Source: a virus
Lineage: Duplodnaviria; Caudoviricetes
IMG/VR virus record: IMGVR_UViG_3300046779_000966
Span: 1-35,945 of that record
Reading direction: 5' to 3' (one strand)
Length of the DNA: 35,945 bases
Part shown: positions 20,154 through 35,892 of the stretch, one piece after another
How positions within the stretch are numbered: position 1 is the first letter of the stretch
Layout of the letters: every line of letters begins with the position of its first letter
Notes under the pieces: model-generated
Databases searched by the model: none
What the model was told of the DNA's origin: nothing
What the model saw: only the letters and a program-made list of their open reading frames with translations
Made by a program: the position numbers and the translations under genes

Positions 20154-20426
20154 TTACTCCTCAAACCCATAGCCCAAGATGTCTTCAAGGGTTTCATAGC
20201 CCTCTTCAGTATCTTCCATTTCCAAACCTGTCAAAAGCAGGTCGAAGGTTTCATTGACAAACTTATCAGAAGCCTCTGTTCCCTTTACAATGTCTTCTGA
20301 CAAAGCAAAGGCAAGTGGCAAGCCAATGTCGTTGTATGTGATGAAGTCTTCAAAGTCCTCGTCATCACGATAGTTCAACCATAGGTCTGATAGAATTTTT
20401 GTTTTGTTTTCAAATGATGTAGCCAT
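20154..20426 (-). CDS. hypothetical acidic protein (YNDIGLPLAF)
   Basis: ORF track; AGGAG RBS. Confidence 0.8.
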   Translation of the reverse strand: MATSFENKTKILSDLWLNYRDDEDFEDFITYNDIGLPLAFALSEDIVKGTEASDKFVNETFDLLLTGLEMEDTEEGYETLEDILGYGFEE

Positions 20427-20471
20427 TAGTTCTCCTAGTTAGGTTTCTATTATACCAAATACCGCTGACAA

Positions 20472-20681
20472 TTAGAAGAGCATTTCTCGCTCGTCTACCT
20501 GCTTGTCGTGCTTCTCAAATTCAGCAGCCTCTGCGACAATCATTAGGCGGTTGTATGAAATTGTTGGTGCTAGTCTACCAAGATAAATACCCACTTGGTC
20601 TAGGTCTAAAGTTACATCATTGAGTATTTCAGCAATCTTGACTGCGGTCTTTTCATTCTTGGACATTCCTCGTCTGGTCAT
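20472..20681 (-). CDS. hypothetical protein
   Basis: AGGAG RBS; TTGACT-N17-TACAAT upstream. Confidence 0.75.
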   Translation of the reverse strand: MTRRGMSKNEKTAVKIAEILNDVTLDLDQVGIYLGRLAPTISYNRLMIVAEAAEFEKHDKQVDEREMLF

Positions 20682-20838
20682 TTGTATTCTCCTATGCTGA
20701 TTGTATCAAAATTAGAGGGGGAAGTCAAGAGTAAGAAAGGAAACTCTCGACCTCCCCCCAGTTGGGTACCCACCCTAGCAACCCCTTACTATTTGGGTAC
20801 CTTCCCTCGGAGCTGTGCTCGACGAAGGAGGATTCATG

Positions 20839-21225
20839 TCAATACAGCCAGTTAATCTGTCGATCGCTGGTCATATCGATGGTCATTGGGTCTGGAAGCT
20901 TAGCTAGCATGTCGTCAATGCTAGGGTCCCTGTCTTTGGTCATTGCCAGAAACAGCTCTATTGCCAAGAAGAAGTCACTGCCCCACTCCTTCTCTGGGAA
21001 GCGATGCGCAATGGACTTAGTCTGCTTCTCGTCCAGCTTGAATGCGTCGAGGTAGAAACGCAAGGTCCTACCGTCATCAGTCTGCGCATACACAGATGGT
21101 TGACAGGTTAGATTGTCATCTAACGTAGTCTCTGTAGTCTCCATGTCGTACTCTTCTGCGTAGAATAGGTTTAGGTCGTACTCTGCACTAATAACTTTAG
21201 GCGACAATGTTTGCTTCCTCTCCAT
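20839..21225 (-). CDS. hypothetical protein
   Basis: ORF track; start uncertain. Confidence 0.7.
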   Translation of the reverse strand: MERKQTLSPKVISAEYDLNLFYAEEYDMETTETTLDDNLTCQPSVYAQTDDGRTLRFYLDAFKLDEKQTKSIAHRFPEKEWGSDFFLAIELFLAMTKDRDPSIDDMLAKLPDPMTIDMTSDRQINWLY

Positions 21226-21613
21226 AGATGTTCTTCAAGTCTACCACGGTAGCTACAGGGATGTCAATAGAACCGTACTCACATTCTGGACAATCTGGGT
21301 TACCGTCTTCGAAACCATCTTCGTCAGTACAATCACACATACGGTATGCCCAAGTAGGAACCTCAGTGTACTCGTCATCCCAAGGGTTCTCGGTAATGTA
21401 GTAGTGGATACGGTTTACCCAGTGTAGACCAGCAACAATGTAAGTACCCTCGTCACCGTCTACCTCAGTCCAAACAAAGTTAGGATGAATAGACTTGACA
21501 TAGTCGTACTCACCGTCATAAGTCTCGAAGTGTAGCTGGTCATACTTAACAAGATGATTTTTGATTGGCTTGAAGGTTTCTACCCAAGCGTCATAGGTGT
21601 AAAACTTGCTCAT
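21197..21613 (-). CDS. hypothetical protein with C-terminal Cys cluster
   Basis: G.HWVNRI.YYIT..PW; CDC...CPEC. Confidence 0.8.
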   Translation of the reverse strand: MSKFYTYDAWVETFKPIKNHLVKYDQLHFETYDGEYDYVKSIHPNFVWTEVDGDEGTYIVAGLHWVNRIHYYITENPWDDEYTEVPTWAYRMCDCTDEDGFEDGNPDCPECEYGSIDIPVATVVDLKNIYGEEANIVA

Positions 21614-21626
21614 TGGGGTCTCTCTC

Positions 21627-22151
21627 TTAGAAGTGGAAGTCTACGAATACAATATACCAGTTTTTGTTGCCCTTGTCAATATCTTCTAGCATATATTTTG
21701 TATTAGTTGTTTCGTGATACATGTCATAGAAGTAAGAGTTGAAATCCCACTTGCCCTGTATCATGTCAATCATCTTTGACAGGTCATAGAGGGGGAAGCC
21801 AAAGTCCATTTGTCCGTCATACTTATCTAAACAAGCATTGATGTCAACGTTCTTCTCATTGAAGTGTTTGCGGTATAGGTTGAACTCCCCCATACGTGCC
21901 TCAATACCTTCCTTGACAGTATCAAGAAACTTACGTGGCTCGTCGTCATATGAGATAGTCATAGACTGGTTATCATCGTCATAGCCGTCAGTATCGTTAG
22001 GGTTCCACCTACCGCCACCAGTTACAAACCAATCATACCAAGATGAATAGTTATCACCACTGCCCATGTTTACTTCAAGGTAGTGCTTTACTGAACTGAA
22101 TGCGTGGCTCTTGTCGTCTGCCTGAACTGCGATACGCTGTAATACGTGCAT
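21627..22151 (-). CDS. hypothetical protein (WYDWFVTGGGRW...VDFHF)
   Basis: AGAAAG RBS before MHVLQR. Confidence 0.8.
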   Translation of the reverse strand: MHVLQRIAVQADDKSHAFSSVKHYLEVNMGSGDNYSSWYDWFVTGGGRWNPNDTDGYDDDNQSMTISYDDEPRKFLDTVKEGIEARMGEFNLYRKHFNEKNVDINACLDKYDGQMDFGFPLYDLSKMIDMIQGKWDFNSYFYDMYHETTNTKYMLEDIDKGNKNWYIVFVDFHF

Positions 22152-22182
22152 GGGGTTTCTTTCTTTAGGGTTACACTCTATT

Positions 22183-22737
22183 TTAGAGCAAAACGTTGGC
22201 GTTGTCAACTACTTCTTGCAAGATCGACTCTTCCCTGGCGGTAAGAAACGCTTGAATATACTCTTGCTGGGTAGGTAACTTGTCTAGTGGAAACTCTACA
22301 GTTAGTCCAGCAAACTTACTAATAAACTTATTAGTGTTGTAGTTGATTTCATAGACACCCTCACAGAATAGGTCGTCAGTCTCAAACTCTCGCTCGTCTA
22401 CAAGTGGAACAGGTCCAGCAGACCAACGAACTACATTGAGGATGTCGCCACAGGTATCTCTACTAAAACTAGGAAGCATAGAACCAAACTTCTTCATATG
22501 CGTAGTTTCGGGGTAGCGAGTGTTGTAGTCCTGATAGATAACTTCCCTATCAGTATCAGAGATAAAGTAACACTTATCTAATGCCAACTCCAACTCTTCT
22601 ACAGCGTAGCGGTCAGAGCTAAGGATGTGTAGAATCTTAGCACCCTGTCCCTCTGGATAGTGGTCCCATTGTCCGTACTGTGCTACCTTTAGGATGTTGT
22701 CTTTGTCAATTACTTTAGTTAGTCCACGAGTTCCCAT
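22183..22737 (-). CDS. hypothetical protein (MGTR...QYGQWDHYPEGQG)
   Basis: AGAAAGG RBS; TTGACT-N17-TATAAT upstream. Confidence 0.8.
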   Translation of the reverse strand: MGTRGLTKVIDKDNILKVAQYGQWDHYPEGQGAKILHILSSDRYAVEELELALDKCYFISDTDREVIYQDYNTRYPETTHMKKFGSMLPSFSRDTCGDILNVVRWSAGPVPLVDEREFETDDLFCEGVYEINYNTNKFISKFAGLTVEFPLDKLPTQQEYIQAFLTAREESILQEVVDNANVLL

Positions 22738-22804
22738 TGGAACACCTTTCTTGTTGGGGTTATGTATAGATTATAGTGGATTTGGGGGAAAAAGTCAAGA
22801 GATC

Positions 22805-23035
22805 TTAATCAAATATTTGATAAGCCCTCATACCGACGATGTCCACTGCCTGCCTCTGCACGTCCATCCAGGCAGTCTCACCAAAGAAGTACTTAGCCCT
22901 GCTGCCAGGGGTAACTAGCTTATAGAAATCGAAGTATGTATCTGAACTATATACAGCTACACCCTCGTCATGGTACACACGGTTCCATCCAGTTGAAGAT
23001 ACGGATGGCTTCTTGCTTGCAAATTTCTTTTCCAT
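22805..23035 (-). CDS. hypothetical protein
   Basis: Leaderless after TTGATT-N17-GATAAT. Confidence 0.7.
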   Translation of the reverse strand: MEKKFASKKPSVSSTGWNRVYHDEGVAVYSSDTYFDFYKLVTPGSRAKYFFGETAWMDVQRQAVDIVGMRAYQIFD

Positions 23036-23148
23036 AGCTATATTATCCCAGAATCTGGGGAAAAAATCAAGAGGTTCGTAAAGATATTTTTAAGGTTAAC
23101 TACTTTACATAAGATCTTGGGGGCGCTCCCCAAAGGGGCAGGACTTGC

Positions 23149-23325
23149 CTACCCCTTGAGAAACTTGTGATACCACTTGCGATTAGCCATAGCCTCAATA
23201 GTATCAAACTTGTCAATCATTTCTGAAATCAAGTCTCTGGTATAACTATTGAACTCTGCCATCCACTCTTCGTGTGCCTCATTACTAGCCATCCTAGCAT
23301 ACTTGGCAATCTCTTTACTCTTCAT
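23149..23325 (-). CDS. hypothetical protein
   Basis: Start trimmed to MKSKE. Confidence 0.65.
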   Translation of the reverse strand: MKSKEIAKYARMASNEAHEEWMAEFNSYTRDLISEMIDKFDTIEAMANRKWYHKFLKG

Positions 23326-23431
23326 CTTCACTCTCCACAGGAGCAAACATACGCTGCATCCTCTTGAAACCGTCATAGTCTAGGTTCTCAGTAACCCATT
23401 TCCAAATTGCTTGTTCTGCTTCAGTTGCCAT
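23315..23431 (-). CDS. small hypothetical protein (38 aa)
   Basis: MATEAEQAIWKW...; coupled start/stop. Confidence 0.55.
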   Translation of the reverse strand: MATEAEQAIWKWVTENLDYDGFKRMQRMFAPVESEDEE

Positions 23432-23613
23432 TAGAATACATCCTCATACTTTGGTAGTTCGTCATAGGGGTAGCCGATAGCCATAAGAACATTCTCATAG
23501 GCGTTGATTAGCCCATTGAAATAGTCCTTAGAACTATCATTGATGTCTAGTTCGTTATAGTGTGGAACTAGTTCGTTTAGTCTTCCTAGCAGATGTTCTG
23601 CTAATGAATCCAT
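23431..23613 (-). CDS. hypothetical protein
   Basis: Start trimmed to MDSLAEH. Confidence 0.65.
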   Translation of the reverse strand: MDSLAEHLLGRLNELVPHYNELDINDSSKDYFNGLINAYENVLMAIGYPYDELPKYEDVF

Positions 23614-23629
23614 AGTTACATAGTCTGCG

Positions 23630-23770
23630 TCAGGACTCAACAATTTCAACTGCCTCCCAATCTCCGTCTGGTAATTTGCTGTGCTCTTCAATGGCTAAGT
23701 CAATAGCCTCGTCTTCATCTAATGCTTCCACCCAATAACTTGCGGTGTAATCTACTCTGTATCTTTTCAT
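23630..23770 (-). CDS. small hypothetical protein (46 aa)
   Basis: MKRYRVDY...VEALDEDEAIDLA; directly after promoter. Confidence 0.65.
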   Translation of the reverse strand: MKRYRVDYTASYWVEALDEDEAIDLAIEEHSKLPDGDWEAVEIVES

Positions 23771-23800
23771 AGTTCCTACTTTACCATTGGGGTCTGACAT

Positions 23801-23965
23801 TTATCCTACAAATCCGTATACTGCTTTTTGATACCGCTTACAAGCCAGGGTAGTGTGACCAATCTTTTTAGAATCCGATCGCCATTTCTTACCACATTCA
23901 CGACAAGCATACCAATCATGCTCTTCGCCCTTATGCTTACGAACATCAACAATCTGATTACTCAT
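23801..23965 (-). CDS. small Zn-finger-like protein
   Basis: YACRECGK...H...C. Confidence 0.6.
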   Translation of the reverse strand: MSNQIVDVRKHKGEEHDWYACRECGKKWRSDSKKIGHTTLACKRYQKAVYGFVG

Positions 23966-24149
23966 TTACAATCTCCACATTTACAGCGTCATACAGTTCG
24001 TTATACTTTACAAAAGAATAGATGTCATCTACATAAGCAGACTTATAGTATTCAATCAACTCTTCCTCTGTGAAATTGTTTTCTAGCATTAGTTCATCCT
24101 CGTCTGGATAGTAATCAAAACTAATACTGACTCTTACTACTCTACTCAT
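23958..24149 (-). CDS. hypothetical acidic protein
   Basis: ORF track. Confidence 0.65.
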   Translation of the reverse strand: MSRVVRVSISFDYYPDEDELMLENNFTEEELIEYYKSAYVDDIYSFVKYNELYDAVNVEIVNE

Positions 24150-24366
24150 TTATACAATCCTCACATTGATAGAAATCATCTTCTAGTTTAGTTAGTTTGA
24201 CATCGATGTAACCATACACGCAGCAGGTATTACAAGCAATAGGCTCACAACCTTCTGGGCAATACTCTTGGTCACCCTCACAGGTTCGACAAAAAGGATT
24301 ACAGTCAAATGCCCCTCCGTGATTAGGGCATTCCAAGTGTTCGTGATTACACTTGTAGAGTTCCAT
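24142..24366 (-). CDS. Cys-rich protein
   Basis: CPNHGGAFDCNPFCRTCEG plus further CxxC pairs. Confidence 0.7.
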   Translation of the reverse strand: MELYKCNHEHLECPNHGGAFDCNPFCRTCEGDQEYCPEGCEPIACNTCCVYGYIDVKLTKLEDDFYQCEDCINE

Positions 24367-24470
24367 TACTTTACCTTTGCTAGCATTTCTGACAACCTCT
24401 TCAGTTGGTCAGGGGTAAGGCTCTTGATAACATCTTCATTGATTAGATTAGGGTTCTTCCATTCATTCAT
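24366..24470 (-). CDS. small hypothetical protein (34 aa)
   Basis: Leaderless after promoter. Confidence 0.55.
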   Translation of the reverse strand: MNEWKNPNLINEDVIKSLTPDQLKRLSEMLAKVK

Positions 24471-24492
24471 AGAACCAATTATAGGGGTAGGG

Positions 24493-24678
24493 TCAGACAT
24501 TTATAAAATCCTCTGTGTCAAAGCAATCATCCATGTAGTATTGTTCTGGGGTAGTAACGTAAGACTTCAAGTCATCTAGGGCTGCAGCATCCCACATCTC
24601 CTCAGACCAATCTGCCTCACCAGGCACGGTAAAGGTAATGACAGCATAGTCATTAATAAACCTATAAGTCTTTATCAT
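24493..24678 (-). CDS. hypothetical acidic protein
   Basis: ORF track. Confidence 0.65.
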   Translation of the reverse strand: MIKTYRFINDYAVITFTVPGEADWSEEMWDAAALDDLKSYVTTPEQYYMDDCFDTEDFINV

Positions 24679-24890
24679 TATGCCTCGTAGTGTTCAACAA
24701 CTACAGACTGAGAAACTGTCTTACCATACTCATAGACGACATCCCAGTCAGTCCAAGTGATACGACCATCCTCTTCACGCCACTCCTCTGCTACCTCTTC
24801 TGGTAGGTCATCGGTATCTAGGACATAGAGGACATCCTTTGGGTCATACTCCCACCAGTCACCATTCTGATTTGCGATAAAGATTGTCAT
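24678..24890 (-). CDS. hypothetical acidic protein
   Basis: AGAAAGG RBS before MTIFIAN. Confidence 0.7.
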   Translation of the reverse strand: MTIFIANQNGDWWEYDPKDVLYVLDTDDLPEEVAEEWREEDGRITWTDWDVVYEYGKTVSQSVVVEHYEA

Positions 24891-25055
24891 TAGGGTTGCC
24901 TTTCTTCTTGATGTATCCATTATGCCATAAGGGTCAGACATTGTAAAGGGCGACACGCCGATTTCGGGGAAAAATATTTTGTGTTCGTAATTAAGGTTTG
25001 GATGATTGTATATCTGGAGCGCCACGAACTCGATCAGCTGTCAAGCCACTAGGGC

Positions 25056-25084
25056 AGGCAGTTTATAGACTTGCCTAGGTCTAT
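25056..25084 (-). ncRNA. repeated 3'-UTR pseudoknot, copy B
   Basis: TAGAC-CT-AGGCA-A-GTCTA-TAAAC-TGCCT. Confidence 0.6.
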
Positions 25085-25087
25085 GGC

Positions 25088-26101
25088 TTACGCCATTACG
25101 ACAGACTGAACGACCTTCATCAAGCGGTTCTTCTCAGCATTCACCATTGGGTCAAAACCAGAAGCCGAAGCAAGAATAGACTCGTTAGAGCCACCACGAC
25201 CCGAACGATACCAGTCCAAACGCTCGGTCAATGCGTTGTAAGCACCCCAAGCAGTTCCAGCAATGGTGTTGTTGTAGTCACCGACATAGATAGCCTGAAG
25301 CAAGTCCACCTTTGCGTCATACTTCTTGAATGAACCCTTAGCGTCTTTCTCAGGGGCAGGGTAAGCAAGAGCAACAATCTCGTCAAACTGCGACTTAGTG
25401 ATTTCGGTTTCAATCATAGCCTGAGCCATAGTTGAAAACTCGTCTAGGTAAACCTTAGCCAAGCCAAGAGCCTCACGAGCAACGGCAATTTTACCCTCAG
25501 CAGTCTGAGTGTGACGGATTTTGAAGGTTTGCTTTGGAGCCTTCTTGCCCTTGACAGCAGATAGAGCGAGGTTCAAAGTGTTAGCACATACAACACGAAC
25601 AGGAGTAATCGAAGCCTGAATAGCAATCGAACCGTCGTGAGAGGTGTTGATTAGCAGATAGTTGTCAATCTTATCAGCACGACCGTTAGGGTCTAGGGTA
25701 ATGCTATCGGTTAGAGCAATCGAACCAAACACAACACGACCGCCACGAATAGAGCCAGCAGTTTCCCAACGACCGCCACCGTCTAGCAGGTTGTCACCAA
25801 ATGAGAACAAGTCCTCGTTCTGAAGCGGAACATAACGCTCACCAACAACGCCAAGAACATCATTCTTAGTGCGGTCAAATGGGTTAGTGCGAGTAACGAA
25901 AGAGTAAGACTTGTCAGACTCAAAGTTCTCAGGAATAGCAACATCTTCTAGGCGAACATTCCAGTTGTCTAGGTGTGCGAGTTTCAACATCTCAGAGGTG
26001 TTTACCTCGTCTTCAAACACAGTGCCAAGACCATGCCAAGCAGGTTGGCGAAGCGAAGCAAAGGCAGTCTGTCCGTTTACGGTTTCTAGTTCGTGAGCCA
26101 T
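25088..26101 (-). CDS. DUF932 / TIGR03299 phage-plasmid protein
   Basis: PAWHGLG, Y.PLQN, ETAGSI.GG, SHDGS, TPVRVVCANTL, GTAWGAYNA. Confidence 0.9.
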   Translation of the reverse strand: MAHELETVNGQTAFASLRQPAWHGLGTVFEDEVNTSEMLKLAHLDNWNVRLEDVAIPENFESDKSYSFVTRTNPFDRTKNDVLGVVGERYVPLQNEDLFSFGDNLLDGGGRWETAGSIRGGRVVFGSIALTDSITLDPNGRADKIDNYLLINTSHDGSIAIQASITPVRVVCANTLNLALSAVKGKKAPKQTFKIRHTQTAEGKIAVAREALGLAKVYLDEFSTMAQAMIETEITKSQFDEIVALAYPAPEKDAKGSFKKYDAKVDLLQAIYVGDYNNTIAGTAWGAYNALTERLDWYRSGRGGSNESILASASGFDPMVNAEKNRLMKVVQSVVMA

Positions 26102-26254
26102 GGGGTTCAACTTTCTTTTAGTAGGGATTTCTGATAAGACTATTATGACAGAACCCTCTGACATTGTCAATACTATTTGGGAAAATTTTTTGGCGTGTCG
26201 TAAACATCTTCGTAAACCAGGGAAGCTCGATCCTGGGCGGGCGCTCCGCAGGGG

Positions 26255-26282
26255 GAGCAGTTTTACAACTTGCTCAGGTTGT
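26255..26282 (-). ncRNA. repeated 3'-UTR pseudoknot, copy C
   Basis: ACAAC-CT-GAGCA-A-GTTGT-AAAAC-TGCTC. Confidence 0.6.
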
Positions 26283-26287
26283 TTTGT

Positions 26288-26470
26288 CTACTTCCCAACA
26301 AGGATTAGACTAGGGCTACGCTTACGCTTAGCCTTTGGCTTTGCTGGAATGTTCGTGGTCTGGTTGGTAGCACCGAGGAACTTTCCGTCAGCGGTACGGA
26401 CTACCGCCTTGTAGACCTCACCATTCTTGGTGTTCCACTTCTCAGTTGCGATAACAATCTTCTTAGTCAT
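26288..26470 (-). CDS. small basic protein (R.ADGKF.GATNQT)
   Basis: AAGGA RBS before MTKK. Confidence 0.7.
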   Translation of the reverse strand: MTKKIVIATEKWNTKNGEVYKAVVRTADGKFLGATNQTTNIPAKPKAKRKRSPSLILVGK

Positions 26471-26503
26471 TTGTTTCCTTTGTTTGTTGGGATAGTTTAT
26501 GTT

Positions 26504-26531
26504 GAGCAGTTTAGACACTTGCTCAGGTGTT
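26504..26531 (-). ncRNA. repeated 3'-UTR pseudoknot, copy D
   Basis: ACAC-CT-GAGCA-A-GTGT-CTAAAC-TGCTC. Confidence 0.6.
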
Positions 26532-26549
26532 TAGGCGTAAACCTATGGT

Positions 26550-26999
26550 TTAGATAAGGTCAATCACAGACGAGTAAGAACTTGCCGAGATTTCCTCTTG
26601 GGTAGTCATACGCAATACCTTGAGGTTCTGCTCTAGGACTTCCTTGCGGTTGATGTGCTTGTTGCCATACCACTCAGACTGATTAGGCTTCTTAGGCTCA
26701 GTTGGGCGAACAGGGAAACCAACAATCTTGTCTGAGTCAAAGTTCAACTCAAGACGACCATTGTAGTTGGTGTTGATACGGATTAGGTCATTGAACTCAT
26801 AACCAATCTTCTCAACATTCTGGCTAACATAGTCAATGATAGCCTTAGCAACCTCGACCTTGTAGTTTGCTAGGTCTGCTTCATACTTCTCGTAGTCAGC
26901 AGGGTATGAGGCAATCTTAGCGTCAATCTCAGCAATAGCAGCCTCAATCTGAGAGATAACAGCAGCGGTTGGAACTTTTACGGACAGGGCACGAGCCAT
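26550..26999 (-). CDS. hypothetical coiled-coil protein
   Basis: ORF track; own promoter. Confidence 0.8.
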   Translation of the reverse strand: MARALSVKVPTAAVISQIEAAIAEIDAKIASYPADYEKYEADLANYKVEVAKAIIDYVSQNVEKIGYEFNDLIRINTNYNGRLELNFDSDKIVGFPVRPTEPKKPNQSEWYGNKHINRKEVLEQNLKVLRMTTQEEISASSYSSVIDLI

Positions 27000-27069
27000 T
27001 TGTTTCTTCTTTCTTTTGTTGGGGTTTGGAACTCTATTATTATGCCATAGGGGTCTGACATTTTAGTGT

Positions 27070-27097
27070 GGGCAGTTTTACTTGATACCCAGCAAGC
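27070..27097 (-). ncRNA. repeated 3'-UTR pseudoknot, copy E
   Basis: CTTG-CT-GGGTA-T-CAAG-TAAAAC-TGCCC. Confidence 0.55.
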
Positions 27098-27115
27098 AGT
27101 TTATTCTCCTGCGAG

Positions 27116-27271
27116 TTACTTGACAGTAGTCCAGCGAGGGTTGCCGTTTACATCAAGACGAACTCGGAATGAGCCTGTCTTGTTCTCGACAACTTCCTGA
27201 ACAATACCGACAACGCCAGACTTCTGGGTTGCGAACTGTGAGCCAACAGTAGGGGCGATTACATTTGCCAT
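27116..27271 (-). CDS. small beta-rich (SH3-like?) protein, 51 aa
   Basis: MANVIAPTVGSQFATQKSGVVGIVQEV...RWTTVK; two tandem TTGACA-N17-GATAAT promoters upstream. Confidence 0.7.
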   Translation of the reverse strand: MANVIAPTVGSQFATQKSGVVGIVQEVVENKTGSFRVRLDVNGNPRWTTVK

Positions 27272-27507
27272 TTATTGCTTCTTTCTACCTAGACCTATTG
27301 CTAGGATTTGTTTGATTTGTTTACATTCTATTATCTCAAGAAAACTAAGAGTTGTCAAGCATTTTCTCAAAGTTTTTTGACTTATTTTTTCTTGCGTTTC
27401 TTCTTTTCTTGATACATCTATTATCGGGGATTTCGGGGGAAATGTCAAGCATTTCTTAAAACTTTTTTCGGCGTGTCGCAGGATCGATCGGGGCGCTCCC
27501 CGAAGGG

Positions 27508-27537
27508 GGGCAGTTTACGTAGACATGCCCAGGTCGT
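27508..27537 (-). ncRNA. repeated 3'-UTR pseudoknot, copy F
   Basis: GAC-CT-GGGCA-T-GTC-TACG-TAAAC-TGCCC. Confidence 0.55.
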
Positions 27538-27568
27538 TTTTCGTAGGGGGAAAGAAAGGATAAGAACC

Positions 27569-27997
27569 CTACGAGGTCTTGTTACTCCAGATGACATCTG
27601 AACTGTAGTCAACAATGTCTTCATGGCTTACAGCAAAGTCAAAGTCCCAGTCTGGGTCAACCTCGCTGTCAATGCTGTGCTCAACCTCAATTGTAAACGT
27701 TACATTTACTTCATAGGTTGCGGTCTTGGTCAATTCAATATCAAGATTATCAGCAATGTGCTTGATAGTCTCAAGGTCGTGGTCCTCAACTGCTTCGGTT
27801 AGGACGTTCTTTACACGCTCCTCATACTTCCACTTTTCCTGACGGATTTCACGAATGCGTTGCTCTGACTTTTCCATTGCGTCGCTCTGGGCAGACACAA
27901 GGCTCTCAAGGTTAGAAATCTGCGCCTTCAGGCTCTGAAGCACAGGGTGCTCACTTGCTACAGTGTTGTCAATGATTGCGTTCTCAAAGTTTTCCAT
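27569..27997 (-). CDS. hypothetical coiled-coil, acidic protein
   Basis: AAGGA RBS before MENFEN. Confidence 0.8.
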   Translation of the reverse strand: MENFENAIIDNTVASEHPVLQSLKAQISNLESLVSAQSDAMEKSEQRIREIRQEKWKYEERVKNVLTEAVEDHDLETIKHIADNLDIELTKTATYEVNVTFTIEVEHSIDSEVDPDWDFDFAVSHEDIVDYSSDVIWSNKTS

Positions 27998-28051
27998 GTT
28001 GTTCCTTTTCTTTTTGGTGATACGTCTAATTATAGCGAGGGGGTCAGACAT

Positions 28052-28255
28052 TTAGTCCTCCAGCCACTCCGATACATCTTGTCCGTCAAGGAATGCCTGC
28101 GCAAACTTGATACGCTGATAGTCTGGTAGTTCACCTAGGATTTCTAGATACTCTTCTGGAAAGTCACTTAGGCTAGTGATTAGGATGTCGTCGCCACCAT
28201 AGTTACCGTCAGCGGTAATGTACAGTAGGTTTCCTGATAGTTTGTCGTATGCCAT
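28052..28255 (-). CDS. hypothetical protein (DGNYG motif)
   Basis: ORF track; own promoter. Confidence 0.7.
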   Translation of the reverse strand: MAYDKLSGNLLYITADGNYGGDDILITSLSDFPEEYLEILGELPDYQRIKFAQAFLDGQDVSEWLED

Positions 28256-28380
28256 GGGGTTCCTTTTCTTTTGATATATCTATTATGAGGCATAGCTCCG
28301 ACATTGTCAAGCTTTTTCGGGAAAAATCTTAATCGTGTCGTAAATAGGTCGATCTGCGCAGAGCGCCCCCGAAGGGGTAC

Positions 28381-28503
28381 TCAAGTGGTACAGACCAAAA
28401 CAAGTACAACAAAAACAGTGATTAGCCAAGGTAGCGTGAATATCATAGCAATGATATCCATACTGCTTCTAAATGGCTCTTCGGGCATCTCTTCTCTATC
28501 CAT
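28381..28503 (-). CDS. small membrane peptide (40 aa)
   Basis: AAGGA RBS; C-terminal hydrophobic stretch. Confidence 0.5.
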   Translation of the reverse strand: MDREEMPEEPFRSSMDIIAMIFTLPWLITVFVVLVLVCTT

Positions 28504-28512
28504 TACCTATCC

Positions 28513-29232
28513 TTACTTTTTACTTGCCGAAAACAGAATGTCGTTGCGAGAGAATACGCATTGCGAACACAACACACAGGCAGAACCTTTATCGGTAATC
28601 AGTTTCAACTTGCGGTTGTTCTCAGGGCAAGGAACAGCAGACTTATCCTGAATAGCCTTGAAATCCTCTTTACCCTCGGCAAAAGTGTTAGCAAGGTATG
28701 CCAACTTGATACCATACTGCTTCTTCAACTTGATACCTAATGCTCGGTTAGCAGCGTCAGTTGAGAAATACAAACCTAGGTTTTCAATTCCAACTAGGTG
28801 TGGAACAGCAAAGTCGCTTCTGGTGTAAACCCAAAACTGAACATCCTTGTGCTTTAGGATTACATCACGCCAAGCCATTACATAAGTCTCATTGAAAAAG
28901 TCGCCATCCCAATGGATACGGAACAACTTCTCGGCATTACGCTTCTCGCAATCCTTGTTGAAATCAGTAATCATCTCGTCTAGCAGGTTATACATAGTTA
29001 GGTAATCAGCGTTTACCAATTGCTCATAGTTGCTCACTAGGATGTTGCGAACACCCTTGTATACCTTCTCAAGTTTGCCAGCGTAGCACATCTTCTCGCA
29101 AACCGAGGTAGCCCCAGGGCAGGAATAAGCCTTGCCAGCAGGTAAACCAAAAGTGTTAGCAATAGTAGGTGTCTTGCCATTAGGTGATACAGCGTTAGTA
29201 ACTTTGCGGTCTTTGCTTCTGATAAGTGCCAT
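28513..29232 (-). CDS. Gp88-like protein (radical-SAM-like Cys motif)
   Basis: FGLPAG..SCPGA...C...CYA, FRIHWDGDF, W.YTR, C..C..C. Confidence 0.75.
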   Translation of the reverse strand: MALIRSKDRKVTNAVSPNGKTPTIANTFGLPAGKAYSCPGATSVCEKMCYAGKLEKVYKGVRNILVSNYEQLVNADYLTMYNLLDEMITDFNKDCEKRNAEKLFRIHWDGDFFNETYVMAWRDVILKHKDVQFWVYTRSDFAVPHLVGIENLGLYFSTDAANRALGIKLKKQYGIKLAYLANTFAEGKEDFKAIQDKSAVPCPENNRKLKLITDKGSACVLCSQCVFSRNDILFSASKK

Positions 29233-29357
29233 TGGGGTTGCCTTTCTTTACTTGTTTATTTTAGCAGTAGGGTCAGACATTTATAGTATTTCGGGGCAAA
29301 ATATTTTCGTGTCGTAAACCGATCCTCAGCTGCGTGGGCGCTCCCCGAAGGGAGAGG

Positions 29358-29666
29358 TTAGTCCTCTAGACCTTCCTCGTCAAGTTCAACCCATGACTGA
29401 AGGTGGTGTCCTTCGATGATTGCCCATGCTGGAGCGGTATCCTGACCACGCCAAGTAATCTGGAATGGCTTACCATTTCGCTCACCATCAAAAGGCAAGT
29501 CAATCTCCTTGTCCCAGTCACCCTCAAGGGCAGCGTCAATAGCCTCAACGCATGGCTGAATCATGACTAGGGGAACAGGTGGATAGTGGTTTGAACGCAA
29601 GTGCCATGCTAGACCATCTTCGATAGTCATTAGTTCTGCCATCTCTGCTGCTTGAAGTGAACCCAT
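29358..29666 (-). CDS. hypothetical protein (HL..NHYPPVP...HHL..W)
   Basis: ORF track; own promoter. Confidence 0.8.
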   Translation of the reverse strand: MGSLQAAEMAELMTIEDGLAWHLRSNHYPPVPLVMIQPCVEAIDAALEGDWDKEIDLPFDGERNGKPFQITWRGQDTAPAWAIIEGHHLQSWVELDEEGLED

Positions 29667-29716
29667 TAGTTTCCTACTTTCTTTAGATAGTTATAGATTA
29701 GCATGAGGGTCAGACA

Positions 29717-29914
29717 TTATTTGCCTGCCCACACCGCCCTGCCTGTTTCCTCTAGAAACTCAAAGTCTTCCTCAAACAAAACTTGGTCTTCTGGCAAGCC
29801 AACTAGGTGAGGTGGGATGTCATCGAAAACAACTCGGTAACTAGCAAGAGCTTGCTCCTCGCTGTTTGCGTTTACTCTGTATCTGCGTGTTAGCTCTATC
29901 TCGAATTCTGGCAT
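29717..29914 (-). CDS. hypothetical protein
   Basis: GAAAGG RBS; own promoter. Confidence 0.7.
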   Translation of the reverse strand: MPEFEIELTRRYRVNANSEEQALASYRVVFDDIPPHLVGLPEDQVLFEEDFEFLEETGRAVWAGK

Positions 29915-29958
29915 TGGTATCCTTTCAGTTAGTTAGACTTTACCATAGGGGTATGACA

Positions 29959-30087
29959 TTATAGATAGTCAATGATGTCGCCATCGAAACCCATTACATC
30001 TAGGTCTGCCATTACCTGTGAATAAGAAATCTCTCCAGCCTGTGCCAACTCAAAAAGTTCCATTACATCTGGGTCTAGTTCGTTCAT
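29959..30087 (-). CDS. small acidic protein (42 aa)
   Basis: GAAAGG RBS; own promoter. Confidence 0.6.
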   Translation of the reverse strand: MNELDPDVMELFELAQAGEISYSQVMADLDVMGFDGDIIDYL

Positions 30088-30207
30088 TGGGGTTCCTTTC
30101 GTTGATAGATAAATTATTACACACCCCTCTGACATTTATTTCGGGGAAAAAGATCTTAGCATCGTAACTAAGCTATCCAGCTGGGCGGAGCGCCCCGAAG
30201 GGGAGGA

Positions 30208-30651
30208 TTACTCCTCCTCCTCCTGAGAGTCATCATAGCAATCACGACACATACCCTCGTCATAGATGTCATCATCACCGCACTTGTCGCAACGCTCGGT
30301 CTGGCAGTCCCAACCATCACAGTTTTCCTCGCCACACTCAAGGCACTCGTCAAACTCTCTAGCACCCTGCTCAATTAGAGTTTCAAAGCCGAGGTTTGGG
30401 TCTTCCCCATTTGGCATAGTTGAAACTGCTTCAACAAACTTCAAGCCACAACTCTCGGCATACCAATGCTTGACAGTTTCCAACATCTCACTAGCAGACA
30501 TCTCGCTCTTAGAGATTAGTGGGTCATAGTCATACTCTTTCATCTTGACCATCTGCTGGTCATCCATCAGGATGTAAATCTTGTGGCAGGTATCGAAAGC
30601 AATACCCTTAGCCTCGTCAATGCGGTCTTCGACCAAATCCCAATCCAACAT
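30208..30651 (-). CDS. acidic protein with C-terminal Cys-rich Zn fingers
   Basis: FDTCHKIY, SCGLKF, several CxxC. Confidence 0.8.
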   Translation of the reverse strand: MLDWDLVEDRIDEAKGIAFDTCHKIYILMDDQQMVKMKEYDYDPLISKSEMSASEMLETVKHWYAESCGLKFVEAVSTMPNGEDPNLGFETLIEQGAREFDECLECGEENCDGWDCQTERCDKCGDDDIYDEGMCRDCYDDSQEEEE

Positions 30652-30830
30652 TAGTTGTTTCCCTTCATTACATCCAAAACCTCGTTTGCTCCGTCTGCCT
30701 TGCCAACAGCATAAGCGTAGTCAAAAATCTGACGGATGTTCACAATGGTGTAGATAGACACATCGTGCTTGTCTGCCAACTCCTGAATAGGGTTGTAGTA
30801 GTCGAAGAACTCTTGCTCTTGCTTGGTCAT
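30651..30830 (-). CDS. hypothetical protein (59 aa)
   Basis: AAGGA RBS; own promoter; coupled to the next gene. Confidence 0.65.
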   Translation of the reverse strand: MTKQEQEFFDYYNPIQELADKHDVSIYTIVNIRQIFDYAYAVGKADGANEVLDVMKGNN

Positions 30831-30881
30831 TGGGTATCCTTTCTTAGATACTTAGATTATACGACAGGGGTCAGACATTTA

Positions 30882-31052
30882 TTAGTAAGACTCAGAGATA
30901 GCCTTACGCTTGTTGCTCTGACGGCTTCCCTTATACTTAGCAGGGGTAGCAACAATGTGTGGTGATAGCATTAGGCTCTGGAACAATTCCTTGCTCTCTG
31001 CCTTACGCCTTGCTTCATTAGCCTTGCCTAGTGGCTTTCTATTCTTCTTCAT
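30882..31052 (-). CDS. small basic protein
   Basis: Leaderless MKKNRK...KYKGSRQ. Confidence 0.65.
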   Translation of the reverse strand: MKKNRKPLGKANEARRKAESKELFQSLMLSPHIVATPAKYKGSRQSNKRKAISESY

Positions 31053-31150
31053 ACTAATAAGTATACAGGACACCTCAGACATTTATGGGATTTCGGGAGA
31101 TTTTTCGTAACCTTCGTAAATCGATCGATCGAGCTGGGGGGCGCTTCCTC

Positions 31151-31345
31151 CTAGTCGAAAGCATACCTAGAAGCATACATCTCACCGATGGCTGCTTCCT
31201 CTGCCAGCCGTGCCTCAGCACGAGCACGAGCCTGCTTCTCAGCAGGGGTGAGGGCTGCCTCCTCAGCAGCAATCTCCTCCTGCCAAGAGAGGAAGTCCTC
31301 CCACTCCTGGGCTTGCTCTTCTGGGGTCATCTCTGATAGGAACAT
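31151..31345 (-). CDS. small helical acidic protein
   Basis: AGAAAGG RBS; TTGATT-N17-TAAGTT upstream. Confidence 0.7.
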   Translation of the reverse strand: MFLSEMTPEEQAQEWEDFLSWQEEIAAEEAALTPAEKQARARAEARLAEEAAIGEMYASRYAFD

Positions 31346-31500
31346 AGTTCACCTTTCTTTCTAAGATAAACTTAGCATAGATCTGGGGGAAAATCAAGTC
31401 GTGTCGTAAATAATTTGTAACAAATAGATCACGATCGGGAGCGCTCGGCACAACATCTAGTAGCAAGCTTGGTTATTGCCACTAGATATTGTGTTACCGT

Positions 31501-31620
31501 TTAGAACGGAGGCTTGTTTTGGTCTAGACCCTTGCGGAAACCGATGCCGTGAGCCAGAAGGTATACTACGCTAACAAGGATGATGTCGATTAGGAGGTTA
31601 AAGCCGTTGTAAAAAATCAT
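31501..31620 (-). CDS. small membrane peptide (39 aa)
   Basis: GAAGGGA RBS; own promoter; one TM. Confidence 0.6.
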   Translation of the reverse strand: MIFYNGFNLLIDIILVSVVYLLAHGIGFRKGLDQNKPPF

Positions 31621-31722
31621 TTCAGTTCCCTTCGTTTGATGACTCTAGGATACCACGAGTATCCGACAACATCAAGTCAATTTTGAAAATTAGTTCCTCA
31701 AGTTCCTCAACGCTTAGTTTGC

Positions 31723-31893
31723 TCATTTCTGAACCTCCATCTCTTCAACCATCTTAGCAATTCTTTGGGCAGTTGGCAAGTCCACATTTGGCAAAAGCAT
31801 ACCAAGCATTCTGGCGTATGGGAAATCAGCCTTAGTCTTGAGAACCTCTAGGGTCTTGTCCAATAGGTCGTGTGCCTCTTTGCTGTAACTCAT
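31723..31893 (-). CDS. hypothetical protein (56 aa)
   Basis: AAGGA RBS; own promoter. Confidence 0.65.
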   Translation of the reverse strand: MSYSKEAHDLLDKTLEVLKTKADFPYARMLGMLLPNVDLPTAQRIAKMVEEMEVQK

Positions 31894-31943
31894 TTATTCC
31901 TTCTTTCTAACTTATCTAAAATCTATCACAGGGGTCTGACATT

Positions 31944-32147
31944 TTAGTATTTGGCATAGCCAATGCTAATACCATACTTCCAGCCCTTGATACTTGGGTG
32001 GCTCAAGATAGCGTCAACCTGCTCTTGGCTTGATACAGGGAACTTGTGAACGGTGAACATCTCTAGTGGCTTGCCGTCATTACGCAAAGCCCAATCACGA
32101 ATGTTCTCGCCACGCTTGGTCACAATCAGGGTATTGAACTCGAACAT
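31944..32147 (-). CDS. hypothetical protein
   Basis: GAGG RBS; own promoter. Confidence 0.7.
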   Translation of the reverse strand: MFEFNTLIVTKRGENIRDWALRNDGKPLEMFTVHKFPVSSQEQVDAILSHPSIKGWKYGISIGYAKY

Positions 32148-32268
32148 CTATTACCTCTTTCTCTAACTACTAAAACACTACCATACCCCTCCGACATTTA
32201 TTGGGACATTTCTGGGCGTGTCGTAAATTGCTTCGTAACTGGGATCTTTTTTTCGGGGCGCTCCGAGA

Positions 32269-32367
32269 CTACCCCTCCCAAGGGTAGTAGTCTGGAGCCT
32301 CTAAGCCATAAGGCTGATAGACATCTGAGTCACAGCCACAGCAAGGGCGGTCTTCACATTGGCACAT
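32269..32367 (-). CDS. 32-aa Cys-rich peptide MCQCEDRPCCGC...
   Basis: AAGGAG RBS; own promoter. Confidence 0.65.
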   Translation of the reverse strand: MCQCEDRPCCGCDSDVYQPYGLEAPDYYPWEG

Positions 32368-32417
32368 AGGTTCTCCTTCGGGGTTGATAGAACAAATCTA
32401 GCATAGGGGGTGGACAT

Positions 32418-32555
32418 TTATTTGATTTTTTCCCAAGACACAATCCAGCCGTGGTCAAAAGCCATCTTGACCCAATCCAAATTCTTTGCGGTGTTCTCAA
32501 TAACCTGCTTGGTGTTGCTAGGGGTAACGATTTCGATGTGTGTGTATTTGCTCAT
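32418..32555 (-). CDS. small hypothetical protein (45 aa)
   Basis: Leaderless after promoter. Confidence 0.6.
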   Translation of the reverse strand: MSKYTHIEIVTPSNTKQVIENTAKNLDWVKMAFDHGWIVSWEKIK

Positions 32556-32668
32556 AAGAATAAACTAGCATAGGGTTCGGACATTTATTTTGGGAGATCG
32601 TACACTGCTATCGTAACTAAGATCGATCCAGCTGCCGAGCGCCTGCGTCGGGCGTGTCGCCCTAGCGG

Positions 32669-32860
32669 TTACCATTTCCTGGTTGAACCCATTGACTTGG
32701 CTAGTCTGGTCAGTAGGGTCAGACGGCGAGACTCCTCTTCCGTGATGTCCCAATCCAATACCTCTTCGGCATACTTGAGTAGTGACTCCAACTCAGTCTC
32801 GATTTCTGCGAGGGTAGAGCCAGTTCCGATGTATGGGTTGAAAACTAGTGACTTGAACAT
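32669..32860 (-). CDS. hypothetical protein
   Basis: AGAAAGGA RBS; own promoter. Confidence 0.7.
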   Translation of the reverse strand: MFKSLVFNPYIGTGSTLAEIETELESLLKYAEEVLDWDITEEESRRLTLLTRLAKSMGSTRKW

Positions 32861-32910
32861 TAGTTATCCTTTCTTTCTAAAACTAATCTAGCATTAGGGT
32901 CAGACATTTA

Positions 32911-33075
32911 TTAGAGGTAGTCTAACAAGTCTACGCCTAAATACTCTTCGGTGTGAGAGGTGAACGGCATTAGTCCGTCATACTCGTTACACTCAGGGCA
33001 GAGGTAAGCATAGGTTGTGTTGTAGCAGTAAGCACAGATACGGAGGTCTGCGTCTACATTCTCAAACTTGTTCAT
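32911..33075 (-). CDS. small Zn-finger protein (C..C...C..CNEYDG)
   Basis: GAAAGGA RBS; own promoter. Confidence 0.7.
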   Translation of the reverse strand: MNKFENVDADLRICAYCYNTTYAYLCPECNEYDGLMPFTSHTEEYLGVDLLDYL

Positions 33076-33123
33076 TTCATTTCCTTTCGATTTACTACAA
33101 ACTTAGCATAGGGGTCAGACATT

Positions 33124-33273
33124 TTAGTAGGTCTTGTTGAATTGTAGGTCTGCCCAAACCCTCCACTGAACAGGGTGGATTTCTGCTTCCCTGTCCTGCT
33201 TGATTAGGTCTAGAATGTAGCGGTAGAATTCTTTTTCGCTCTTGGTCATTCTTGGCTTACGGGTCTTGTTCAT
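33124..33273 (-). CDS. small hypothetical protein (49 aa)
   Basis: AGAAAGG RBS; own promoter. Confidence 0.65.
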   Translation of the reverse strand: MNKTRKPRMTKSEKEFYRYILDLIKQDREAEIHPVQWRVWADLQFNKTY

Positions 33274-33457
33274 CTGATACCTTTCTTTCTAACTACTACA
33301 AACCTAGCACATAGGTCTGACATTGTCAATACTATTTTGGTAACAAATTGATAACATTCTGGGGGATCTAGATCTAGTGTCTTAAAGCTCGTAAGCTACT
33401 AGATCTTGGGGTCGGGCGCTCCGAAAGCGTGGACTTGTCAAGTCGACACGCCGTTAT

Positions 33458-33676
33458 CTAAGCAAGTTCCTCTTCGGTCAGAGGCTTGCGAAGACCTTGG
33501 GCTAGGAAGCGTTCAAAGTGATACATCTTCTCAGCCGAGGAAGCAACGAAGACCACGCCTTTACGCTTAGCGAAAAAGTCCATTGCTGGGTGACCATACA
33601 TAGCAACCTGAACACCTCGGTACACAGTGCCGTCAGCGGTTCTACCTGTTACAACCCATTCAATTCCATTAGCCAT
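33458..33676 (-). CDS. hypothetical protein
   Basis: AAGGA RBS; own promoter. Confidence 0.7.
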   Translation of the reverse strand: MANGIEWVVTGRTADGTVYRGVQVAMYGHPAMDFFAKRKGVVFVASSAEKMYHFERFLAQGLRKPLTEEELA

Positions 33677-33930
33677 TTGTTTTCCTTTTCTTTTGATAAA
33701 TCTATTCTATTGTGGGGGTGTGACATTGAGATGTATTCTACATTGCTCTCACGTCGTTACGACCAGCGGTATCTCTAAAGCCACTGCTCCTGCTCTTTGT
33801 TTCCATACCTATAACTTAGCATATACCACCGACATTTATCAAGGGAGATCGTAGTATCTACGTAACAGAATGATAACGATCCGAGCGCTCCGAAGTGGTC
33901 AGTTTGTCAAGCTGACCCTTGGGCGTGTCG

Positions 33931-34089
33931 TTAGCATTTACACCTAACAACCTCAATGTGGTCCTTGTAGACCTTGATAGCAGCGAGGGTAGAGCAAGTC
34001 TGACACGCAATAACACTAAGCTTAGGCAACTTACCCAATACACGCTTAGTCATTACCGCCTTAGTCAGCATAGCCAATCCGAATCCCAT
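33931..34089 (-). CDS. small basic Cys-containing protein
   Basis: AGAAAGGA RBS; CQTC...CKC. Confidence 0.65.
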   Translation of the reverse strand: MGFGLAMLTKAVMTKRVLGKLPKLSVIACQTCSTLAAIKVYKDHIEVVRCKC

Positions 34090-34137
34090 AGTTGTATCCT
34101 TTCTTGATACTATTAGTTTAGGTGAGGGGTCTGACAC

Positions 34138-34383
34138 TTATGCGTGAGCAGAGCAAACATAGAATGAGTCAATGTCCTCAACCATACGCTTGCCAGACTT
34201 TGACCAACGAGGACGAGCATAGGTTACCTTAGCAACAACAGTGTCGTCACAGTTACAGCAAGGGCAGTCGTCATAGGACTGGCAACCCCAACCCTCAACC
34301 GATACTGACTCACGAGCAATCTCAGTCCACTCAAAGAAACCAAAGTTCCTCATCTCGTTTAGTGTGTATCCCTTGGTAGCCAT
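34138..34383 (-). CDS. Cys-rich protein (CQSYDDCPCCNC...C..H); first gene of the array
   Basis: GAAAGGA RBS; own promoter. Confidence 0.7.
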   Translation of the reverse strand: MATKGYTLNEMRNFGFFEWTEIARESVSVEGWGCQSYDDCPCCNCDDTVVAKVTYARPRWSKSGKRMVEDIDSFYVCSAHA

Positions 34384-34642
34384 TTCTTTTCCTTTCCTAA
34401 CTAAATAAATACTAACAGATGGCACGGACATTGAACAACTCGACACGCCGTAGTGGATCGATCTTTTTTATTTATTTGGCTGGCACCAGTAGCTAGCTGT
34501 GGTCGCACTATATATTTGGGTTTTGTGGCGTAGAACGTGTATCATACATCTCTAAAAAATATTCAGATTTTTCCAAATATAAAATTTTTCAGATTTTGCA
34601 CGGTATGAAATGTAACAGAATTATAACAAATCTATATTTGTA

Positions 34643-34891
34643 TCACTCTACTGATACATTTATAGCTTTATCCTTAGCATATCTCCAGCGGTACGAATGA
34701 TTAAACGATCTTTGATATCTCAAGAAAGCAGCTCTCCTCTGATCATATTCATAAATCCTGGGGTATGGATTATCTGATGTCCTAACAGGTGTAGAGAAAT
34801 GCCTCTTAGCTGCCTTATATGCTAAAGCCCTAACGTATTTATCACTAGGTTCGAAGTAATATTTGATAAATTTGATAATTCTCATTAGCAT
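34643..34891 (-). CDS. hypothetical basic protein
   Basis: ORF track. Confidence 0.55.
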   Translation of the reverse strand: MLMRIIKFIKYYFEPSDKYVRALAYKAAKRHFSTPVRTSDNPYPRIYEYDQRRAAFLRYQRSFNHSYRWRYAKDKAINVSVE

Positions 34892-34934
34892 GGTTTAAAC
34901 TTTCGACGGTATTGGGTCAAGCTTGCTTGATCCC

Positions 34935-35534: not shown

Positions 35535-35536
35535 AC

Positions 35537-35737: not shown

Positions 35738-35892
35738 GTATCAATGATATCACGAAAACCGAGAATGTGTCCACATATTGCACTTTTAGTGCATGGGTGT
35801 GGATGGGTCCTCTATTTTACCGCCGTGATAAAACCTCTATTTTGCCGAGAACTTTACCGCCGAGTTTAAAAATGTTATATAATTAAAGATAT

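Follow-up and report, generated by a model that had tools for sequence, protein, structure and literature searches.

GATC and AGCT are purged from the early genes of a freshwater phage lineage and retained at the nodes between them

Early genes, nodes and promoters

The virus record IMGVR_UViG_3300046779_000966 (the window, analysed over the full 35,945 bp of the record) is a phage fragment encoding WhiB, GroES, Hsp20, thymidylate synthase and six tRNAs (1541-2033 and 12943-13094). Its right half contains a leftward array of small early genes interrupted by non-coding nodes. A sequence-only reading had claimed that GATC is purged from these genes and piled into the nodes as deliberately kept sacrificial or sensor sites. 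The DUF932 gene of the array has 46 relatives among viral contigs (64-96% identity), and ten relative contigs (G001-G010; 56-112 kb, three near complete) were analysed end to end. Along the minus strand, a stop codon comes first, in many nodes with a hairpin after it; a GC-rich core (RGCGCY in the window) is next, then GATC and AGCT, TTACGA and CGACAC, a T tract and finally the promoter TGTCNG-N10-YANNNT.

23149..34383, minus strand, gene array (about 36 small early genes) with 4-bp palindromes purged
25088..26101, minus strand, DUF932 gene (PF06067, E 2.5e-49)
26550..26999, minus strand, 149-aa gene, the most heavily purged family (six words together observed/expected (O/E) 0.01; 36 homologues)
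28513..29232, minus strand, Gp88 gene (PF17338, E 4.1e-49)
23075..23148, minus strand, node 1: core 23122, GATC 23113
24941..25087, minus strand, node 2: TTGACA, AGCT 25036, GATC 25032, core 25018
26164..26287, minus strand, node 3, before DUF932: core 26240, GATC 26229, AGCT 26224
27449..27568, minus strand, node 4: UUCG hairpin, core 27492, GATC 27482 and 27486
28304..28380, minus strand, node 5: core 28362, second GCGC 28356, GATC 28351, AGCT 28310
29280..29357, minus strand, node 6: core 29337, AGCT 29328, GATC 29321
30135..30207, minus strand, node 7: core 30189, AGCT 30171 and 30179, GATC 30152
31082..31150, minus strand, node 8: core 31140, AGCT 31132, GATC 31123 and 31127
31395..31500, minus strand, node 9: core 31440, GATC 31427 and 31433, AGCT 31466
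32197..32268, minus strand, node 10: core 32257, GATC 32243
32584..32668, minus strand, node 11: core 32638, AGCT 32630, GATC 32596, 32621 and 32625
33323..33457, minus strand, node 12: TTGACA, core 33415, GATC 33365, 33371 and 33402, AGCT 33386 and 33394
33835..33930, minus strand, node 13: TTGACA, AGCT 33910, core 33884, GATC 33847 and 33878
34431..34520, minus strand, node 14, outermost, without core: GATC 34456 and 34460, AGCT 34491 and 34495
23778..34430, minus strand, 21 PafBC-type promoters TGTCNG-N10-YANNNT, a few of which may be chance matches within genes; TGTC at 34430, 34136, 33834, 33322, 33121, 32906, 32583, 32196, 31941, 31668, 31081, 30877, 30134, 29716, 29279, 28303, 28050, 27060, 26163 and 24940, plus others

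GATC occurs 25 times in 23057-34520: once in coding sequence (CDS; 8505 bp), 23 times in the 14 nodes (1346 bp) and once in the other non-coding DNA (1613 bp). The node count compares with a shuffle mean of 5.0 and a maximum of 14 in 2000 shuffles. The lone CDS site is at 23877, just beyond the 23.9-34.4 kb that had been described as GATC-free in every gene, and the lone non-coding site outside the nodes is at 31380. The DUF932, 26550-26999 and Gp88 genes were correctly described as having zero GATC, AGCT, GCGC, TGCA and GTAC. The nodes also carry 14 AGCT and 14 GCGC. The four node strings quoted in the sequence-only reading are in place, and its account of node content mostly stands: one to three GATC in 14 of 14 nodes, one RGCGCY in 13 and AGCT in 11. 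TCGA, which it had also counted as a node word, was rejected as a mere by-product of GATCGATC, with an O/E of 1.04 in the nodes of relatives.

Expected counts for the region were obtained by shuffling synonymous codons in 37 hand-set open reading frames (ORFs; 8590 bp, with the ends of 3 of the 37 off). By this measure the observed and expected counts are 1 and 30 for GATC, 3 and 47 for AGCT, 2 and 37 for TTAA, 2 and 30 for TGCA, 3 and 32 for ACGT, 5 and 29 for GTAC, and 2 and 13 for GCGC; CTAG is not purged (48/45). Because this shuffle keeps the codons, codon usage is rejected as the cause of the purge. Genes outside the region (16.7 kb) are neutral for GATC (63/63) and AGCT (88/92). The sequence-only reading needs correction in its bounds: the purge continues leftward to 20.1 kb, and GCGC is scarce outside nodes throughout the window. 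No CCGG, GGCC or CGCG occurs anywhere in the 35.9 kb.

The gene purge extends to all ten related genomes. For the window and the ten relatives, with ORFs called automatically and about 14 kb of late genes sampled from each, palindromes fill the 11 lowest ranks of the 256 4-mers in early CDS, with a median O/E of 0.28 against 1.02. The pooled early counts are 25/259 for GATC, 27/364 for AGCT and 35/289 for TTAA, compared to late counts of 519/581, 596/815 and 896/931, respectively. The interrupted words CCNGG, GGNCC and GCNGC behave likewise (O/E 0.37-0.45 early versus 0.83-1.18 late), and promoters and leaders are purged as well (4 GATC versus about 38 expected in the ten GATC-bearing genomes). 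These counts support the view, already put forward from the sequence alone, that the early-gene purge carries a restriction signature. Beyond the early region, G001-G010 and the window heavily avoid a word that is not palindromic, CCCG/CGGG (e.g. 3 versus 172 in G005), and CATG is missing from the entire G010 contig.

Counted by family, the GATC purge spans 32911 down to 20154 and is neutral at 16916 and beyond. The genes to the left of the array are as follows.

20154..22737, minus strand, distal early genes, mostly with TTGACA-17-TATAAT promoters; GATC purged in most families
20839..21207, minus strand, conserved 122-aa gene, unpurged within the region (40 homologues)

GATC O/E counts in the 20154-22737 families are 7/34, 0/30, 33/64, 2/47, 0/45 and 13/40. 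The gene at 20839-21207 stands out, with six words together at O/E 1.13 and GATC at 33/64, while both of its neighbours are purged; cuts in the region as such thus seem to be tolerated rather than lethal. The DUF932 family shows 0 GATC versus 162 expected in the GATC-bearing members of 47 homologues. For early genes of unassigned role, the degree of purge offers a ranking by urgency, led by 26550-26999, 27116-27271, 20472-20681 and 23431-23619, and thereby a direct candidate list for anti-defence screens in this widespread uncultured freshwater phage group. The 26550-26999 product is predicted to form a long helix; it has no fold match in the PDB and matches solely uncharacterised viral proteins. 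DUF932 has no solved homologue, its predicted model (pLDDT 52) is too poor for a fold search, and a literature search found nothing on its function.

A core pattern set by eye served to locate nodes in the window and in 34 of its 46 relatives, and 229 of 234 were kept after removal of near-duplicates. For each word, loci entirely without that word were excluded, and the core was masked. GATC occurs 186 times versus 49 expected and is present in 140 of the 176 nodes considered (shuffles: mean 43, maximum 59); AGCT (91 versus 43) and CCNGG (76 versus 41) are also elevated, and against a dinucleotide null GATC and AGCT rank highest among 136 4-mers. The z values of these comparisons are inflated, since related nodes are not independent. 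Junctions of purine and pyrimidine runs were rejected as the cause, as other RRYY words are not elevated. The GATC sites have no fixed setting. No more than 0.21 bits of information lie in their flanks, each of the 16 possible N-GATC-N forms is represented among 175 contexts, and their positions range broadly from -14 to -120 of the promoter, with 1 of 241 downstream. In orthologous nodes, core and spacers vary while GATC persists or shifts, so relatives do keep node GATC as flanks and position change. Four of the ten relatives show clear enrichment, five lie close to background and the remaining one has no GATC at all.

RGCGCY proved to be something else. It had been read as a bare restriction word, but it is the window lineage's form of a longer, lineage-specific core of 6-8 bp. 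The window cores lie in both orientations (7 AGCGCC, 4 GGCGCT, 2 AGCGCT), and relatives have GGCGCC (13 of 13 nodes in G004), GGTACC, GGCCGG, GGGTCGA, GGTGCC or the non-palindromic GGTCGGGC instead. Every core form is almost missing outside nodes, sister rows of the DUF932 tree carry different cores, and genomes without any GCGC, GGCC or CCGG use cores free of those words. No early gene tracks the core word among the 130 families listed for 19 chosen pairs (5 aligned). The core is likely a protein site that evolves around restriction, and the replacement of RGCGCY in relatives is, for that word, one of the outcomes that the sequence-only reading itself had named as refuting. A scan of viral contigs for GATC, RGCGCY and TTACGA in succession was not specific enough, giving about 18000 stretches, and its loci were discarded.

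The claim that the neighbouring promoters are PafBC-like was borne out. Of 22 matches to the promoter pattern in the window, 21 lie within the region, all on the minus strand, and spacers of 8, 9, 11 and 12 gave 1, 0, 0 and 3 matches compared to 21 for a spacer of 10. The PafBC consensus is tGTCgg(N10)tA(N3)T (PMC8635444), and the window promoters match it. A -35 box precedes TGTC in 41 of 176 nodes and is absent in the other 135. Nodes had been placed past the 3' end of one unit and upstream of the next promoter. The second half of this holds, and the first is reducible to "past the stop codon", because a simple scan finds a U-tailed terminator in one node only; about ten promoters have no preceding node.

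The likely terminal repeat, its counterparts and the host

The left edge of the purge agrees roughly with a step in contig depth.

19310..34610, likely long direct terminal repeat and first-entering region, ends approximate (from depth, purge edge and the layout of phage Samisti12)
19372..20083, minus strand, left edge of the likely repeat, AT-rich and with 7 copies of TTACGA

In run X3, contig depth is 6.5-7.3 over 10850-16586, 14.2-16.2 over 19310-28927 and 11-11.8 to 33135, followed by 8.1 at 34381-35945 from a looser contig piece. In run X1 (identical to X2, and perhaps the sample from which the record came) it is 10.7-15.6 outside the region and 15-27 inside, and runs X4, X5 and X6 are too patchy for a judgement. 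Contig depth is not copy number and contigs cannot reveal ends; the roughly twofold step from two independent runs is a hint. We consider the purged block likely to be a terminal repeat of about 15 kb. Since the purge reaches 20.1 kb and fits this likely repeat, it would represent restriction avoidance in the leading region. A depletion gradient was considered as a pointer to the first-entering end and rejected, as counts by family show no gradient. TTACGA clusters resembling 19372-20083 occur in all five relatives inspected, and the stretch is a candidate genome end, packaging signal or injection-stop signal. Several GATC lie beside its TTACGA copies.

Avoidance of sites in the early region is established for T5/BF23 (PMC10644984) and Murciavirus (PMC12455610). 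As in the window, where the long terminal repeat is a likely one, it centres on a block of small early genes inside such a repeat, and late DNA has no shortage of sites. T5 differs in that its first-step DNA is not purged of 4-bp words, with 24 GATC in 7.2 kb of CDS, 2 in non-coding DNA and no partition. Conversely, sites are not absent throughout the window's region as in a T5-type first-step region, given the 23 node GATC, the 14 AGCT and the unpurged gene.

The best cultured matches of DUF932 are Streptomyces cluster BE phages, in which the gene is present twice, in the terminal repeat (55-56% similarity, with relatedness compared by this gene and layout alone). Terminal repeats in this cluster are about 11 kb, and that of Samisti12 is 10,666 bp (PMC5764925). 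Samisti12 shares with the window the DUF932 and Gp88 homologues, leftward cassettes, and a GC-rich palindromic core placed after a UUCG hairpin; at its left end, the first 902 bp contain TTTACGA repeats. Its core, a 16-bp palindrome, occupies the same slot, and the core words are not purged from genes. Unlike the window, it has 0 GATC in 30 kb and no PafBC-type promoter array. Neither a PafBC-type array nor a comparably sharp purge was found in the cultured controls Samisti12, Pumpernickel, Grayson, Hendrix and T5 (30-48 kb), among which coding and non-coding DNA were separated for T5 and Samisti12. Rhodococcus phage Grayson shows a mild purge over 33000-47800, with 2-5 GATC per 3 kb near the right end versus 5-20 elsewhere.

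The early cassettes also resemble the PeSL cassettes of T4-type phages, repeated units of hairpin plus promoter between swappable small genes (PMC4122927). The window differs in that its promoters mostly have a -26 TGTC element rather than near-consensus sigma-70 sequences and most of its hairpins have no U tail; the PeSL passages of that paper do not mention enrichment of restriction words, and GATC has 0 occurrences in them. Known PafBC promoters, which belong to host DNA-damage genes, share both the consensus and the exact 10-bp spacing with the window (PMC8635444 and PMC11804915). Early-region avoidance, PeSL cassettes and PafBC promoters are thus known already, while the retention of restriction words in the same segment seems new. 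A search of the literature outside subscription papers and supplements found no description of such a gene/node partition.

From its gene content, the host is probably an actinobacterium, and 18 of 20 runs containing the record are freshwater metagenomes. Scanning bacterial genomes for DUF932 gave one locus, a phage-like contig inside a bin, and a GroES comparison across 301 genomes centred on that bin gave about 50% identity everywhere and did not pinpoint the host. Four GroES sequences from the host survey, which we take to resemble proteobacterial ones, gave no host either. One relative, L097 (85,019 bp), lies in a bacterial bin titled Bifidobacterium; it has 0 GATC and 0 AGCT in 21 kb, with GCGC at nodes and 18 PafBC-type promoter matches.

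Explanations for the node words

Three facts require explanation: the words appear harmful in early units, harmless late and favoured between units. A host endonuclease that acts only early would fit if the first copy of the repeat is expendable. We tentatively favour the reading that node GATC and AGCT are retained as targets for host restriction, in a first copy of the repeat that can be sacrificed. It starts from the observed purge, palindrome signature and node enrichment. The terminal repeat of about 15 kb would be the first part to enter, and by the time the remainder of the genome is exposed, it would be shielded, the second copy included. A cut in a key early gene would then be costly, while a cut at a first-copy node would not, because each block would stay intact with its own promoter and the second copy would restore the sequence. 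As that second copy is late DNA, node sites would be affordable only for words that late DNA tolerates, and words banned genome-wide would be banned at nodes too. The core would be a separate lineage-specific site, probably bound by protein. If correct, the terminal repeat would be an expendable, fragment-tolerant expression copy, and if node sites are used as break points, restriction would be exploited, not only evaded.

In its weakest step, this reading could extend to the sensor function originally proposed. Single-stranded DNA (ssDNA) activates PafBC (PMC11804915), and resected cut ends might supply ssDNA to host PafBC, which could act on the TGTC-N10 promoters and raise early output in restricting hosts. 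ssDNA and PafBC would be the simplest link because the words and the promoter are combined in a single element; neither is present in the cultured relatives checked. That host cuts in the disposable copy form a tripwire, switching on PafBC to drive phage counter-defence genes, nevertheless seems unlikely to us; if it is true, restriction would trigger the phage's own attack.

Several points weigh against the expendable-copy reading or its extension. When nodes are defined more broadly, GATC lies close to background in 5 of the 10 GATC-bearing genomes (G002, G003, G004, G006 and G010). Nodes are no general safe zone: they are poor in GTAC (10/61), CATG (13/57), GGNCC (5/38), TGCA (22/61) and GANTC (22/58), yet all enzyme words should be welcome there if any node cut helped. 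Non-palindromic control words are also low in nodes (0.53-0.57), which softens this objection but does not cancel it. GATC is missing from 5 of 44 loci and AGCT from 10 of 44, nodes included, with promoters retained. GATC is not commoner before promoters without a -35 box (103/135) than before those with one (37/41). Resection from a break 40-100 bp upstream would consume the promoter unless ends are protected, and no protective protein was identified. In T5-like phages, sites within first-step DNA generally confer sensitivity (PMC10644984). Lake actinobacterial bins, all incomplete, showed no methylated motifs (PMC6329791); GATC is the commonest marine motif listed in PMC8919816, with no tie to this host group. 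Two further points hint at binding. Lineages without GATC have about twice as many GATT near the core as shuffles do (0.65 versus 0.33 per core), and a small GATC peak lies 7 bp before TTA(C/A)G (19/185). Overall, the purge and the node retention of GATC in the original sacrificial or sensor proposal stand, while RGCGCY drops out, and lineages free of GATC or AGCT keep their PafBC-type promoters.

The binding hints favour a possible but less likely alternative, in which GATC and AGCT serve regulatory docking. The words would be bound, or read through host methylation, kept at the cost of restriction and lost where that cost is too high, with GATT partly replacing banned GATC. Nodes are indeed rich in other motifs (TTACGA, CGACAC, DnaA-like boxes, TTGACA before the core) and still purged of several other words. 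The lack of flank information and of a fixed register, and the 1-3 scattered copies of two different words, fit an operator poorly, and they fit a pap-type methylation gate poorly too. Sites gated by Dam (pap, agn43, Mu mom, P1 pac) also keep GATC in clusters or close to promoters, though at set positions of a binding site and in a Dam-positive host. In the window lineage, position and flanks are free apart from the small peak, and the second word, AGCT, behaves alike. Furthermore, phage methylases (N6/N4, C5, D12) were found in 0 of 10 relatives searched with PF01555, 0 of 5 with PF00145 and 0 of 5 with PF02086, and docking leaves the purge of the same two words from genes unexplained. The expendable-copy reading is in turn favoured by the lack of these methylases and of a WYL protein from the three near-complete relatives; a phage WYL protein was found in 0 of 5 relatives searched.

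Node sites could instead be decoys that tie up enzymes before late DNA enters, or exchange points whose compatible ends aid the swapping of blocks between co-infecting phages. The genes between nodes form a mosaic, some contig joints leave out entire blocks, and PeSL elements mediate such swaps in T4-type phages (PMC4122927). However, about 25 node GATC against about 300 elsewhere in a 107-kb relative make a weak sink, and the ends of homology do not cluster at GATC but are scattered across nodes and promoters. We regard this explanation as improbable.

Relaxed selection outside transcription units, with recombination between nodes or slippage multiplying a few words, would account for the tandem GATCGATC forms, for near-neutral TTAA in nodes (126/157) and for the genomes with GATC near background. 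This is very unlikely given that GATC exceeds local shuffles 3.8-fold in nodes with little sequence in common, and given the varying positions among nodes of one genome, and the retention of GATC in lineages with a swapped core. A still fainter prospect is that the core marks phage-made single-strand nicks in virion DNA that supply ssDNA to PafBC, as suggested by the R/GCGCRGG of major T5 nicks (PMC3517423), one such site within the T5 injection stop signal, and the near absence of cores outside nodes; RGCGC lies in both orientations, other lineages' cores are unlike it, no early family tracks the core, and GATC would be left unexplained.

Further features of the nodes and window

No A1/A2-type transfer gene was found among 80 window ORFs (PHROGs) or 141 proteins (Pfam), with A1 and A2 themselves not used as queries. 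Two weak PADLOC matches were disregarded. Hairpins occur in several nodes, with a folding z below -2 in 2 of 8 nodes folded, and 55 of 250 cores are preceded by TTGACA at a distance of 19-23 bp.

CGACAC has 13 copies in 24951-34441 and none elsewhere in the window, which also has a WhiB-like gene at 5010-5297; its GACAC is presumably a WhiA motif. Node 14 contains what we take to be an NrdR-like box at 34506-34518. Early regions of G001-G010 have 5-9 DnaA-type boxes each, often in tandem, and SOS-like boxes in nodes; none occur in the window's region.

A repeated element (CCTGAGCA...AAACTGC-like, minus strand) directly follows stop codons and is common to many relatives.

25053-25080, 26257-26282, 26505-26530, 27070-27095 and 27507-27535, minus strand, CCTGAGCA-type element

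The long non-coding stretch at 27272-27448 has two TTGACA-17-GATAAT promoters, no ORF and no Rfam match (Rfam gave 0 matches over 19-35 kb), and possibly encodes a small RNA. By eye, tRNA-like insertions are seen in the nodes of four relatives (L012 11020-11130, L013 9395-9510, L032 11050-11125 and L022 at about 5300-5470).

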